Source: Escherichia coli
GTDB taxonomy: Bacteria; Pseudomonadota; Gammaproteobacteria; Enterobacterales; Enterobacteriaceae
Assembly: GCF_003334785.1 (NCBI RefSeq)
Contig: NZ_QOWV01000003.1
Length of the DNA stretch: 64,000 bases
Direction: 5' to 3' (one strand)
Both the position numbers and the translations under genes were made by a program. Position 1 is the first letter of the stretch; the number at the start of each line of letters is the position of its first letter. The notes under the pieces were generated by a model, which ran no database searches, was not told where the DNA came from, and was given only the letters and a program-made list of their open reading frames with translations. This document shows positions 49,322 through 52,825 of this stretch, piece after piece.

Positions 49322-49721
49322 GTGGATTTCCTCAAAAGTCAGCAGGGCAAAAGCGCCAAAAAACGGCAGATTGCCGAAAAAGGCCGCAATTATACACAAA
49401 ATCCCTGAGTTTGTCGGGGGTACTGCTGATTTTAGACGACGATCGTTTTCATTTGAAAGGAAACGCAAAAAGAAAATAATCTTTTTGCCTCTATTTATTA
49501 TTTAAGATAATGTTAATGCTCTACTTGTTCTTTTTTTAATTCACATGATATTTTTATCTTTCTGACGTTTTAAACGTATCAGAAGACGTTATTTATTCTG
49601 ATAAAAAACAACACACTAAATATAAAATTATTTCTTGCAGTAATTATAAAAGCCGAAAACAGAACTCAAAAACAATCTGGCTAAATAAAATAACAAAATT
49701 TGCTTTAAGGAAGAATTTTCT

Positions 49722-51950
49722 ATGTACACACAGACCCTGTATGAGTTAAGTCAGGAGGCTGAACGCCTGTTACAGCTTTCTCGCCAACAGTTGCAGTTAC
49801 TGGAAAAAATGCCTCTCTCTGTACCCGGAGACGACGCGCCACAACTGGCTTTACCCTGGAGTCAGCCTAATATCGCCGAACGTCACGCGATGCTGAATAA
49901 TGAGTTGCGTAAAATTTCCCGACTGGAAATGGTGCTTGCAATTGTCGGTACCATGAAAGCAGGGAAATCAACCACCATTAATGCCATTGTTGGTACGGAG
50001 GTTCTGCCTAATCGTAATCGCCCAATGACTGCGCTGCCGACGCTTATTCGCCATACGCCCGGGCAAAAGGAACCGGTACTGCATTTTTCACATGTCGCGC
50101 CAATCGATTGTTTAATTCAACAATTACAACAGCGCCTGCGTGATTGCGATATTAAGCATCTGACCGATGTGCTGGAAATAGATAAAGATATGCGTGCGCT
50201 TATGCAGCGGATCGAAAATGGCGTCGCTTTCGAAAAATATTATCTGGGTGCCCAGCCTATTTTTCATTGTCTGAAAAGTTTGAATGATTTAGTGCGACTG
50301 GCGAAGGCGCTGGACGTCGATTTTCCTTTTTCTGCTTACGCCGCCATTGAGCATATTCCCGTGATTGAAGTGGAGTTTGTCCATCTAGCGGGGCTGGAGA
50401 GTTATCCCGGTCAGTTGACGTTACTGGATACCCCCGGGCCAAATGAAGCCGGGCAACCGCATCTGCAAAAAATGCTTAACCAGCAGCTGGCACGCGCCTC
50501 GGCGGTACTGGCGGTGCTGGATTATACGCAACTGAAATCGATCTCCGATGAAGAGGTCCGTGAGGCGATTTTGGCGGTGGGGCAATCGGTGCCGCTGTAC
50601 GTGCTGGTCAATAAGTTCGATCAACAGGATCGTAACAGTGACGACGCCGACCAGGTGCGGGCACTGATTTCCGGGACGCTGATGAAAGGCTGTATTACGC
50701 CACAGCAGATATTTCCGGTGTCGTCGATGTGGGGCTACCTGGCGAATCGGGCGCGCTATGAGTTAGCCAACAACGGTAAGTTACCACCGCCAGAGCAACA
50801 ACGCTGGGTGGAAGATTTTGCCCATGCCGCGCTTGGCAGGCGCTGGCGTCATGCCGATCTGGCGGACCTCGAACATATTCGTCATGCTGCCGATCAGTTG
50901 TGGGAAGATTCGCTGTTCGCCCAGCCAATTCAGGCGTTGCTTCATGCCGCTTACGCTAACGCCTCGTTGTATGCTCTGCGATCTGCCGCGCATAAACTGT
51001 TGAATTACGCGCAGCAGGCGCGGGAATACCTGGATTTTCGTGCGCACGGGTTAAACGTCGCTTGTGAACAATTGCGGCAAAATATCCACCAGATCGAAGA
51101 AAGTTTGCAGCTATTGCAACTCAATCAGGCGCAGGTGAGCGGCGAGATTAAACATGAAATCGAGCTGGCCCTGACCTCCGCCAACCACTTTCTGCGTCAA
51201 CAGCAAGATGCGCTGAAGGTGCAGTTAGCCGCCTTGTTTCAGGATGATTCGGAGCCGTTAAGCGAGATTCGTACCCGCTGTGAGACACTGTTACAGACGG
51301 CGCAGAACACCATCAGTCGCGACTTTACGCTGCGTTTTGCCGAGCTTGAATCCACCCTTTGCCGGGTGTTAACCGATGTTATTCGCCCCATTGAGCAACA
51401 AGTCAAAATGGAATTGAGCGAGTCAGGGTTTCGTCCTGGGTTTCATTTTCCTGTTTTTCACGGCGTAGTTCCCCACTTCAACACTCGCCAGCTGTTCAGT
51501 GAAGTCATTTCGCGCCAGGAAGCAACGGACGAGCAGAGCACGCGTTTAGGCGTTGTGCGTGAGACTTTTTCGCGCTGGTTGAATCAGCCCGACTGGGGAC
51601 GGGGAAATGAGAAATCACCGACAGAAACGGTTGATTACAGTGTGTTGCAACGAGCATTAAGCGCAGAAGTCGATCTCTATTGCCAACAAATGGCTAAAGT
51701 TCTGGCAGAGCAGGTCGATGAATCTGTTACGGCAGGCATGAATACTTTTTTCGCTGAGTTCGCTTCATGTTTGACGGAATTACAGACGCGTTTACGCGAA
51801 AGTCTGGCTCTGCGTCAACAAAATGAATCGGTGGTCAGGCTGATGCAGCAGCAATTGCAGCAGACTGTGATGACTCACGGCTGGATTTACACCGACGCCC
51901 AGCTGTTACGCGATGATATTCAAACACTTTTCACGGCAGAACGATATTGA
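49722..51950 (+). CDS. crfC: Dynamin-like large GTPase (CrfC/YjdA)
   Basis: 742-aa ORF; G1 P-loop GTMKAGKST, G3 DTPG, G4 NKFD; long coiled-coil C-terminal half. Confidence 0.9.
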   Translation: MYTQTLYELSQEAERLLQLSRQQLQLLEKMPLSVPGDDAPQLALPWSQPNIAERHAMLNNELRKISRLEMVLAIVGTMKAGKSTTINAIVGTEVLPNRNRPMTALPTLIRHTPGQKEPVLHFSHVAPIDCLIQQLQQRLRDCDIKHLTDVLEIDKDMRALMQRIENGVAFEKYYLGAQPIFHCLKSLNDLVRLAKALDVDFPFSAYAAIEHIPVIEVEFVHLAGLESYPGQLTLLDTPGPNEAGQPHLQKMLNQQLARASAVLAVLDYTQLKSISDEEVREAILAVGQSVPLYVLVNKFDQQDRNSDDADQVRALISGTLMKGCITPQQIFPVSSMWGYLANRARYELANNGKLPPPEQQRWVEDFAHAALGRRWRHADLADLEHIRHAADQLWEDSLFAQPIQALLHAAYANASLYALRSAAHKLLNYAQQAREYLDFRAHGLNVACEQLRQNIHQIEESLQLLQLNQAQVSGEIKHEIELALTSANHFLRQQQDALKVQLAALFQDDSEPLSEIRTRCETLLQTAQNTISRDFTLRFAELESTLCRVLTDVIRPIEQQVKMELSESGFRPGFHFPVFHGVVPHFNTRQLFSEVISRQEATDEQSTRLGVVRETFSRWLNQPDWGRGNEKSPTETVDYSVLQRALSAEVDLYCQQMAKVLAEQVDESVTAGMNTFFAEFASCLTELQTRLRESLALRQQNESVVRLMQQQLQQTVMTHGWIYTDAQLLRDDIQTLFTAERY

Positions 51951-52825
51951 CCAAGACGTTACTTGACGGCCCCGGTCGCGTGCTGGAGTCGGTTTATCCC
52001 CGCTTTTTAGTGGATCTGGCGCAGGGTGATGATGCCCGCCTTCCACAAGCCCATCAGCAGCAGTTTCGTGAACGACTGATGCAGGAACTTCTTTCGCGTG
52101 TGCAGCTTCAGACATGGACGAACGGCGGCATGTTAAATGCGCCGCTTAGCCTGCGTCTGACATTGGTGGAAAAACTGGCGTCGATGCTGGATCCCGGTCA
52201 TCTGGCACTGACGCAGATCGCGCAGCATCTGGCGCTGCTGCAAAAAATGGATCACCGCCAGCACTCTGCTTTCCCGGAGCTCCCCCAGCAAATTGCCGCC
52301 TTGTATGAGTGGTTTTCAGCCCGTTGTCGCTGGAAGGAAAAGGCGTTAACGCAACGAGGCCTACTGGTGCAGGCAGGTGATCAGAGCGAGCAAATTTTTA
52401 CCCGCTGGCGTGCTGGGGCGTATAACGCCTGGTCGTTGCCTGGGCGCTGTTTTATCGTTCTGGAGGAGTTGCGCTGGGGGGCATTTGGCGATGCCTGCCG
52501 TCTGGGAAGCCCGCAAGCGGTGGCGTTGTTGCTGGGTGATTTGCTCGAGAAAGCGACACAACATCTGGCAGAGAGTATCAATGCGGCACCGACCACGCGT
52601 CACTATTACCATCAGTGGTTTGCCTCTTCGACCGTTCCGACGGGCGGGGAGCATGCTGATTTTTTAAGTTGGCTGGGAAAGTGGACCACGGCAGATAAAC
52701 AACCCGTTTGCTGGTCAGTGACCCAACGCTGGCAAACTGTCGCGCTGGGGATGCCACGACTCTGTTCAGCGCAGCGTCTGGCGGGGGCAATGCTCGAGGA
52801 AATCTTCTCTGTAAATTTGGCGTAA
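51947..52825 (+). CDS. yjcZ: Uncharacterised protein co-transcribed with crfC
   Basis: 292-aa ORF whose start overlaps the crfC stop (ATGA). Confidence 0.85.
   Translation: MTKTLLDGPGRVLESVYPRFLVDLAQGDDARLPQAHQQQFRERLMQELLSRVQLQTWTNGGMLNAPLSLRLTLVEKLASMLDPGHLALTQIAQHLALLQKMDHRQHSAFPELPQQIAALYEWFSARCRWKEKALTQRGLLVQAGDQSEQIFTRWRAGAYNAWSLPGRCFIVLEELRWGAFGDACRLGSPQAVALLLGDLLEKATQHLAESINAAPTTRHYYHQWFASSTVPTGGEHADFLSWLGKWTTADKQPVCWSVTQRWQTVALGMPRLCSAQRLAGAMLEEIFSVNLA

Follow-up and report, generated by a model that had tools for sequence, protein, structure and literature searches.

The crfC-yjcZ locus of Escherichia coli very probably corresponds to the known rdcA-rdcB operon and may be controlled by a conserved RNA hairpin encoded upstream

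We analysed a stretch of 64,000 nucleotides from an Escherichia coli genome (contig NZ_QOWV01000003.1 of RefSeq assembly GCF_003334785.1), hereafter called the window, and focused on the gene pair crfC-yjcZ and the AT-rich DNA that precedes it. This locus is very probably the known rdcA (crfC/yjdA)-rdcB (yjcZ) operon, whose products act as a GTP-sensing switch that turns on the diguanylate cyclase DgcE. The pair has been described since 2019 and is in this respect ordinary. Its 3.5 kb were found at a coverage of at least 80% in 5399 of 5426 complete E. coli genomes, and the CrfC and YjcZ proteins of the window are 97-100% identical to the common E. coli forms. To what is known of the system, our analysis adds the Escherichia-specific TTG start codon of yjcZ, a survey of where the pair occurs and in what fixed synteny, an upstream hairpin, and a glutamine of CrfC (Q41) that is specific to E. 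coli. The features of the operon needed for the argument are the following, in window coordinates.

49722-51950, + strand: crfC (= rdcA = yjdA), 742 amino acids from an ATG start, a dynamin-like GTPase
49842-49856, + strand: β-clamp-binding motif QLALP, codons 41-45 of crfC (motif from PMC6374313)
49947-49973, + strand: G1/P-loop motif GTMKAGKST, amino acids 76-84 of CrfC, including K82
51695-51722, + strand: intragenic σ28 (FliA) promoter TAAAGTTCTGGCAGAGCAGGTCGATGAA, inside crfC and beginning 252 nt before the yjcZ start
51947-51950, + strand: TTGA overlap, combining the yjcZ start TTG (51947-51949) with the crfC stop TGA (51948-51950)
51947-52825, + strand: yjcZ (= rdcB), 292 amino acids, an all-helical protein

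An initial annotation, made from the letters of the window alone, had recognized a 742-codon and a 292-codon open reading frame (ORF) at these positions as crfC and yjcZ, and had described the former as a dynamin-like GTPase with visible G1, G3 and G4 motifs. Both statements hold. The RefSeq boundaries of crfC and rdcB are identical to the ORF calls, and RefSeq names the products 'clamp-binding protein CrfC' and 'YjcZ-like / diguanylate cyclase regulator RdcB family protein'. CrfC matches the NCBIfam equivalog model NF007368 over residues 1-742 of 742 with 1597.2 bits (cutoff 1146) and the Pfam family Dynamin_N (PF00350) with E = 7.3e-18. In addition to the P-loop it carries T103 (G2), DTPG at residues 236-239 (G3) and NKFD at residues 297-300 (G4); none of the four motifs, with K82 and T103 among their residues, varies in any of 79 CrfC orthologues. 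Its GTPase activity is known from the literature (PMC6510439). YjcZ matches Pfam PF13990 with E = 1.3e-143, residues 21-287 aligning to positions 1-272 of the 272-position model; no NCBIfam model matching YjcZ exists. The AlphaFold model of YjcZ consists of 15 helices and has a predicted local distance difference test score (pLDDT) of 90.3 and a predicted template modelling score (pTM) of 0.90.

The function of the pair is documented in E. coli K-12. YjcZ had initially been annotated as uncharacterized, which did not hold up: Pfiffer et al. (PLoS Genet 2019, PMC6510439) renamed YjdA/CrfC and YjcZ as RdcA and RdcB, making YjcZ the partner of RdcA, and a later study confirmed this assignment (PMC13031359). 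A knockout of either rdcA or rdcB reproduces the dgcE knockout phenotype in a non-additive manner, as read out from macrocolony matrix, CsgD level, csgB::lacZ activity and cellular cyclic di-GMP (c-di-GMP) (PMC6510439). Both proteins are required to activate DgcE, with c-di-GMP, curli and cellulose as the output, and this activation requires hydrolysis of GTP (PMC6510439). The work took an observation by Girgis et al. as its point of departure. In two-hybrid experiments RdcA interacted with itself, tightly with RdcB, and with the DgcE domain MASE1; RdcA(K82A) complements, whereas the GTPase-dead variant RdcA(T103D) fails to do so and has lost DgcE binding (PMC6510439). In a genome-wide screen from 2026 that combined transposon mutagenesis with sorting by Förster resonance energy transfer (FRET), rdcA, rdcB and dgcE were enriched among low-c-di-GMP mutants (PMC13031359). 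The same screen strongly associated ynjH, another gene of the FliA regulon that, like dgcE, lies outside the window, with RdcA/RdcB-DgcE (PMC13031359).

In the published picture, RdcA is a soluble dynamin-like GTPase that self-associates and binds RdcB. GTP hydrolysis, or a low GTP level at entry into stationary phase, would then allow the RdcA/RdcB complex to dock on the MASE1 domain of membrane-embedded DgcE, and this docking would promote dimerization of the PAS3-GGDEF region (PMC6510439). The chain from GTP level through RdcA/RdcB, DgcE and c-di-GMP to CsgD has been a described input to the main E. coli switch between biofilm formation and motility since 2019.

Several points weigh against assigning the locus this function without reservation. 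Sensing of the GTP level by RdcA/RdcB is a proposed model. Deletion of yjcZ alone produced no motility phenotype (PMC4183435), and the motility effect is seen only as suppression of a pdeH mutant. Finally, CrfC has a second published function, binding to the β clamp via QLALP and nucleoid partition (Ozaki 2013, as cited in PMC6374313).

The last of these points supplies the best-surviving alternative, according to which the main role of the locus lies in chromosome biology: CrfC oligomers would sit on the β clamp via QLALP and tether sister replication forks for equal nucleoid partition, and YjcZ would be an accessory. We regard this as unlikely. The replication-fork role that the initial annotation had mentioned is indeed published, and clamp binding, CrfC foci and anucleate cells in ΔcrfC and Q41A strains are reported, at least in the summary given in PMC6374313. 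NCBI still uses the name 'clamp-binding protein CrfC', and QLALP is present in the window, where residues 41-46 read QLALPW (the clamp motif takes the form QL[SD]LF / QLxLx[LFW]). However, Q41, whose change to alanine abolishes binding, is confined to E. coli in a set of 79 species-level orthologues, whereas the GTPase motifs are invariant. The motif reads PLTLP in two other Escherichia species and VLPLHF in most genera, with the L-x-L-x-[FW] skeleton mostly kept (L44 in 63 of 79, F or W at position 46 in 72 of 79). Moreover, the Hengge group points out that clamp binding is GTP-independent, that growth of ΔyjdA is normal and that plasmid expression underlies much of the in vivo evidence (PMC6510439); the clamp-binding work assigned YjcZ no role, and the operon belongs to the flagellar rather than a replication regulon. 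The distribution of Q41 favours the view that clamp binding would be a recent, lineage-specific secondary ('moonlighting') property of CrfC, and is compatible with weaker clamp binding in other species. The confinement of Q41 to E. coli, set against an invariant GTPase machinery, thus bears on the dispute over the primary function of this protein.

The way in which the two genes are joined is itself conserved. The initial annotation had proposed that an ATG start codon of yjcZ overlaps the crfC stop; the overlap is real, while the start codon in the window is TTG, in the junction sequence GAA CGA TAT TGA CCA AG. This start is supported by homologues, whose N-termini are conserved from residue 2 on (M-x-x-x-LLDGPGR), and by the databases, in which the 292-amino-acid form dominates with a cluster of 8048 member sequences. 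We compared the junction across 80 species-level loci, which were retrieved with a query alignment of nine closer sequences and are thereby biased to Enterobacteriaceae, a further 49 weaker matches lying beyond this list. The 4-nt stop/start overlap occurs in 75 of the 80, and yjcZ begins with ATG in 77, TTG being confined to the three Escherichia loci. By sequence comparison, then, Escherichia has a weakened yjcZ start codon relative to the ATGA of the family. Because the Shine-Dalgarno sequence at the junction is weak and the 4-nt overlap is conserved, yjcZ on the full-length mRNA would be translated by termination-reinitiation at the overlapping TTGA.

A second route to yjcZ expression is provided by the intragenic σ28 promoter. 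The 28-mer of the published site, determined by chromatin immunoprecipitation sequencing (ChIP-seq) and RNA sequencing (PMC4183435), matches the window exactly, and its FliA-dependent activity has been shown with a reporter fusion (bioRxiv 10.1101/188474). Fitzgerald et al. reported that this FliA site within yjdA drives yjcZ, and that in ΔfliA expression falls from 52 to 1 for yjcZ and from 111 to 11 for yjdA (PMC4183435). The operon belongs to the FlhDC/FliA flagellar regulon (PMC6510439, PMC4183435). We found the intragenic site, which is of the σ28 form TAAA-N15/16-GCCGATAA-like, kept at -252 only in Escherichia and the Citrobacter freundii complex; it is absent in Enterobacter, Kosakonia and others. 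The product of yjcZ would thus be made in two ways, by coupled translation from the crfC-yjcZ mRNA and from its own σ28-driven transcript.

Two published observations concern the junction itself. A weak NtrC ChIP-seq peak that was negative by electrophoretic mobility shift assay (PMC4066584) maps to approximately 51863-51943 when an offset that we derived from the FliA site is applied, and chimeras recovered by RNA interaction by ligation and sequencing (RIL-seq) join the small RNA GlnZ to the rdcB ribosome-binding region (bioRxiv 10.1101/2022.04.01.486790). Their coincidence at the 3' end of crfC and the rdcB ribosome-binding site hints at nitrogen-linked post-transcriptional control of rdcB.

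The initial annotation had suggested an analysis of co-occurrence, and the two genes proved to be co-conserved: yjcZ is immediately preceded by crfC in all 80 species loci, every one of them from Enterobacteriaceae, and wherever a contig extends over the flanks the order yjdM / crfC-yjcZ ... proP is preserved. Genera represented are, among others, Escherichia, Citrobacter, Enterobacter, Kosakonia, Leclercia, Lelliottia, Phytobacter, Trabulsiella, Yokenella, Franconibacter and Atlantibacter; the 80 listed loci contain no chromosome of Salmonella or Klebsiella. The YjcZ family is small: 1.84 billion representative proteins yield 200 clusters for it at 50% identity. Both members of the pair evolve fast. 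Identity to the E. coli proteins is about 60% for CrfC and about 57% for YjcZ, against 90-95% for the flanking YjdM and ProP; the range is 51-65% in most other genera, falling for YjcZ to 42-45% in the most distant loci, while the flanking proteins stay at 85-96%. The C-terminal half of CrfC varies most: 35-46% of the E. coli residues are shared over positions 451-650 as against 72-90% over positions 51-450. This pattern suggests rapid evolution or co-evolution of an interaction surface. As a side observation, the spacing downstream of the pair varies: in Citrobacter (L005:10925-11935) a KdgT-like permease gene lies between yjcZ and proP on the opposite strand, and most other non-Escherichia loci have a similar gap of about 1.7 kb, compared with 263 bp of non-coding DNA in E. 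coli.

The DNA upstream of crfC is shared with the divergent gene yjdM, and its elements are listed here.

48989-49321, - strand: yjdM, divergent from crfC, with its start codon at 49319-49321
49322-49721: divergent yjdM-crfC intergenic region, 400 bp, 31.3% GC
49389-49417, - strand: σ70-like promoter of yjdM, CCGACA-17-TATAAT, 10 of 12 matches, conserved across genera
49559-49585 (paired positions), + strand: imperfect hairpin UCUUUCUGACGUUU-U-AAACG-ua-UCAGAAGA, the top of which is formed by the first palindrome
49577-49603, + strand: second hairpin UAUCAGAA-N11-UUCUGAUA, -7.2 kcal/mol, z = -2.5
49640-49660, + strand: candidate for a proximal promoter or operator, the block GTAATTATAAAAGCCGAAAAC, which is kept across genera
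49679-49721, + strand: 5'-proximal block GGCTAAATAAAA..TTTGC.TTAAGGAAG, conserved, including the crfC ribosome-binding site

The long AT-rich region that the initial annotation called a leader is exactly 400 bp, and its GC content of 31.3% compares with 52.9% for the whole window and drops to 24.6% over 49441-49721. Orthologous intergenic regions measure 323-636 bp and have 32-43% GC. Such very AT-rich DNA has an ordinary explanation, since H-NS binds there and represses crfC, the mRNA of which is markedly up in Δhns (Taniguchi et al., PMC6374313). Alignment of the intergenic regions revealed three conserved elements, namely the yjdM promoter, the block at 49640-49660 and the ribosome-binding-site block at 49679-49721. 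The region was also searched against Rfam 15, including the c-di-GMP riboswitches, without a match at E <= 1 in 49322-49721.

The initial annotation had further pointed to near-palindromes in this leader. They exist: the first, ACGTTT-T-AAACGT, lies at 49565-49577, and the second, TATCAGAA-N11-TTCTGATA at 49577-49603, has 8-bp arms and is slightly longer than first described. Their number is unremarkable, as neither 6-bp-arm palindromes (10 vs 5.5±3.7, p = 0.12) nor 7-bp-arm palindromes (5 vs 1.7±2.1, p = 0.07) are enriched relative to dinucleotide shuffles. As judged from the alignments, the weight of the palindromes comes from the conservation of a hairpin in other genera and not from chance statistics here.

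We propose that the crfC upstream region may encode a conserved, previously undescribed RNA hairpin on the sense strand that controls rdcAB expression. In E. coli the hairpin at 49559-49585 has a folding energy of -7.3 kcal/mol (z = -2.25). It shares the UCAGAA arm with the second hairpin, so that the two are mutually exclusive, and the second is not kept even in other Escherichia species in the intergenic alignment. The first hairpin, by comparison, recurs in 53 distinct orthologous sequences, where it sits directly after a conserved block that ends in ..GCTACGCTnTTTATC in most genera. The stem differs from genus to genus: CUGACG/CGUCAG in Escherichia, UUACUUAU/AUAAGUGA in Citrobacter, CUGGU/ACCGG in Kosakonia, UGGCU/GGCCA in Enterobacter, CGGUU/GACCG in Leclercia and CGGCU/GCCGA in Lelliottia. 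Relative to shuffles, the 53 sequences have a mean z of -2.2, and 60% of them reach p <= 0.05 on their own. In 51 of the 53 the + strand folds more stably than the - strand (on average -9.8 compared with -5.5 kcal/mol), a bias to the sense strand that is the hallmark of G·U pairing in a sense-strand RNA.

RNAalifold recovered no structure when the leaders were simply aligned with MAFFT, because loop lengths differ and the arms fall out of register. We relied instead on the anchored per-sequence fold test described above and on an alignment to a covariance model, which was built from 11 Enterobacter sequences and searched across 1.5 Mb. The model matches Leclercia, Silvania and Lelliottia with E = 1e-4 to 1e-2 and, weakly, Kosakonia and Citrobacter with E of about 0.1-7; nothing comparable was found elsewhere in the 1.5 Mb. 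In the resulting alignment, which is fitted to the model, includes a few spurious matches and consists of related sequences, 93.1% of cells pair and 5 of 10 pairs change on both sides. The covariation score was reached by 0 of 500 shuffles, and slid controls pair at 42-69%.

With respect to function, the 5' arm of the hairpin is pyrimidine-rich (CUUUCU) and the 3' arm resembles a Shine-Dalgarno sequence (GGAGG or GAAGA); the Shine-Dalgarno sequence of crfC, AGGAAG, is a further possible pairing partner of CUUUCU. Inspection of the orthologous leader sequences by eye found no conserved leader ORF after the Shine-Dalgarno-like 3' arm. The most likely role, to which we would give about an even chance, is in mRNA stability or translation within a putative long 5' untranslated region. 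A hairpin with compensatory changes offers a concrete handle on control of the operon, whose expression depends on FliA although no σ28 site lies upstream. A scan of the 400-bp region found no σ28-like site, and a σ28 promoter once predicted upstream of yjdA is incorrect according to Fitzgerald et al. (PMC4183435). We likewise rejected such a promoter after considering the conserved block at 49640-49660, which holds a σ28-like -10, GCCGAAAA (49652-49659), without TAAA at -35: no genus has a correctly spaced TAAA, and ChIP-seq found no site there (PMC4183435).

It is alternatively conceivable, but in our view improbable, that the palindromes are operators for a DNA-binding regulator, such as DnaA, FlhDC or another dimeric factor, and that no RNA structure is involved. 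Inverted repeats are typical of operators, crfC needs both FliA and FlhDC though no σ28 site lies upstream, and DnaA boxes have been proposed for the region (PMC6374313). In E. coli alone, moreover, both strands fold about equally well, which leaves the strand undecided and counts against an RNA hairpin. However, the arms differ completely between genera while their pairing is kept, the opposite of what a conserved protein would require, and U·G/U·A alternations make the sense strand the more stable one in 51 of 53 leaders. DnaA boxes were also tried directly as regulator sites and set aside. The region holds a single consensus box, TTATACACA at 49390-49398, on the opposite strand; it overlaps the TATAAT -10 of yjdM, and window-wide the number of boxes is not above chance (6 vs 4.5±2.3). 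This box need not be a DnaA site, as the conserved yjdM -10 explains it. An RNA hairpin remains our preferred interpretation of the palindromic sequence.

More distant relatives place the pair in a wider context. YjcZ homologues at 23-31% identity are not found beside yjdM. Where their flanks could be read (L081-L084 and L086-L090), they always belong to a three-gene operon with 4-nt overlaps. It encodes a dynamin-family protein (about 800 amino acids), a member of the YjcZ family (about 300) and a phospholipase of the patatin type (about 355). We refer to this operon as the triad. Representative copies, all outside the window, are listed here.

L086:4590-8961: triad operon
L087:4581-8934: triad operon
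L094:9001-13354: triad operon
L088-L090: further triad loci

The triad dynamin aligns with CrfC over its full length at 33% identity (E = 4e-126), rising to about 60% in the G-domain core (amino acids 60-360), and the triad YjcZ aligns with that of the window over its full length at 31% identity (E = 4e-38). The patatin carries GGGxxG, GxSxG and DGG motifs. The triad occurs in 2443 of 5426 complete E. coli genomes (45%), in as many as five places in one genome; O157:H7 EDL933 has it (WP_000544679, WP_000203541 and WP_000102669), whereas it appears to be missing from K-12. It is likewise carried by 45 PLSDB plasmids of IncF and other types from E. coli, Klebsiella, Enterobacter and one Nostoc, where it is sometimes flanked by insertion sequences. 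Further proteobacteria, Pseudomonas and Methylomonas among them, have it too. We examined two E. coli chromosomal loci, those of EDL933 and M-17; in both, the triad is part of a CP4-44-like island and has DUF932, antirestriction, yeeS/yeeT and cbeA/cbtA genes for neighbours, and the gene for the cah autotransporter adjoins it in EDL933 and not in M-17. On a Pseudomonas putida contig it is located between a BrxR/WYL regulator and a type I restriction-modification system, and on an Allochromatium-like contig it belongs to an insert that separates ileS from lspA and also carries Uma2 and Fic genes. It was not found in 50,697 phage records or in PHROGs. PADLOC v2 has no model for the triad; the triad dynamin gives weak G-domain matches only, the triad YjcZ gives none, and the patatin weakly matches phospholipase effector models of cyclic-oligonucleotide-based anti-phage signalling systems (CBASS; E = 6e-5). 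We found no paper describing the function of the triad, and one passing mention in a catalogue of genomic islands.

A neighbour-joining tree of YjcZ proteins contains two clades. One comprises pair-only members, beside yjdM or without a patatin, and includes the YjcZ of the window; the other is much more diverse and holds all known triad members. A tblastn search found no patatin anywhere in the window, and the window pair is not a member of the triad. The extra gene between yjcZ and proP in other genera was considered as a lost patatin and rejected, since it is the KdgT-like permease gene on the opposite strand. NCBI applies the name 'diguanylate cyclase regulator RdcB family protein' to both clades, and labels some members of the patatin-linked clade 'chemotaxis protein' or 'ferredoxin reductase'. 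Use of the RdcB-family label for the triad clade, which is much the larger one and is linked to a patatin lipase and not to a cyclase, is probably an over-extension, and thus a likely annotation error.

These relationships permit a tentative proposal, which we consider possible at most: RdcA/RdcB could be a chromosomally fixed, effector-swapped sister of the mobile triad, the two sharing a nucleotide-gated switch for a membrane enzyme. If this were true, a GTPase-adaptor pair would activate DgcE via MASE1 in one system and a phospholipase in the other, and about 45% of E. coli genomes would carry, in the triad, a system so far undescribed that serves either in conflict (abortive infection or defence) or in membrane remodelling. 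The triad is in any case a candidate new system.

The same relatives bear on the hypothesis of the initial annotation that crfC-yjcZ acts in membrane stress or defence. The pair would then be a module for membrane repair or against phages, comparable to other bacterial dynamin-like proteins such as DynA or LeoA/LeoBC (Eleos). This hypothesis found no support for the chromosomal pair and is very improbable: CrfC does match LeoBC (E = 5.8e-6) and LeoA (E = 3.2e-5) weakly in PADLOC, and paralogues of both proteins occur in the mobile patatin operon, whose P. putida copy adjoins BrxR/WYL and type I restriction-modification genes, but the matches stem from the shared GTPase domain and fall below a system-level call, YjcZ has no match, no patatin or effector gene adjoins the pair (proP follows 263 bp on), the site is syntenic and fixed in 80 of 80 species rather than a variable island, RdcA is reported to be soluble and without a membrane-binding motif, the known phenotypes (biofilm matrix and motility) are fully explained by DgcE, and there are no matches in PHROGs or phage collections. 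An Eleos call rests on confident LeoA and LeoBC matches together, and PADLOC returned only weak partial matches for CrfC and none for YjcZ. The idea of defence has an echo in the relatives of the pair, that is, in the patatin-coupled mobile operon.

The neighbourhood of the operon in the window is unexceptional, its gene order being phnC, yjdN, four repeats of the repetitive extragenic palindromic (REP) type, yjdM (- strand), crfC and yjcZ (+ strand), and proP. The remaining features are as follows.

48592-48968: REP325-type element between yjdN and yjdM, four tandem copies with a 100-bp period
53089-54591: proP, 263 bp after yjcZ

The REP325-type copies match the Rfam family naRNA4 (RF02564) on the - strand with 95-111 bits and were the sole matches in the Rfam search of the region. 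They also give rise to spurious repeated ORFs in the six-frame list.

Compared with characterized bacterial dynamin-like proteins, namely BDLP of Nostoc (PDB 2J68), DynA of Bacillus, LeoABC/Eleos of enterotoxigenic E. coli and DLP1/2 of Campylobacter (5OWV), CrfC likewise has an N-terminal G domain with G1-G4, self-associates, has a long helical C-terminal half and is encoded next to a partner gene, as is common for paired dynamin-like proteins. Its sequence similarity to Nostoc BDLP is confined to about 50 residues around the P-loop (71-124, E = 1.7e-6). Unlike these proteins, RdcA/CrfC is described as soluble, lacking a membrane paddle or other typical membrane-binding motif (PMC6510439, PMC6374313), its partner is a 292-amino-acid helical non-GTPase and not a second dynamin-like protein, and its output is the activation of a signalling enzyme rather than membrane fusion or repair. 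The triad shares with crfC-yjcZ the gene order, the 4-nt overlaps and full-length homology of the proteins; it differs in its third overlapping gene, for the patatin, and in its mobile, patchy distribution, and its dynamin is without QLALP and scores 567 bits on the CrfC model, under the cutoff of 1146. The closest counterpart is the RdcA/RdcB system of E. coli K-12 (Pfiffer, Sarenko, Possling and Hengge 2019): it is the same locus, with an identical order of yjdM / crfC-yjcZ / proP and the same internal σ28 promoter sequence as in the window, and nothing essential differs between the two.

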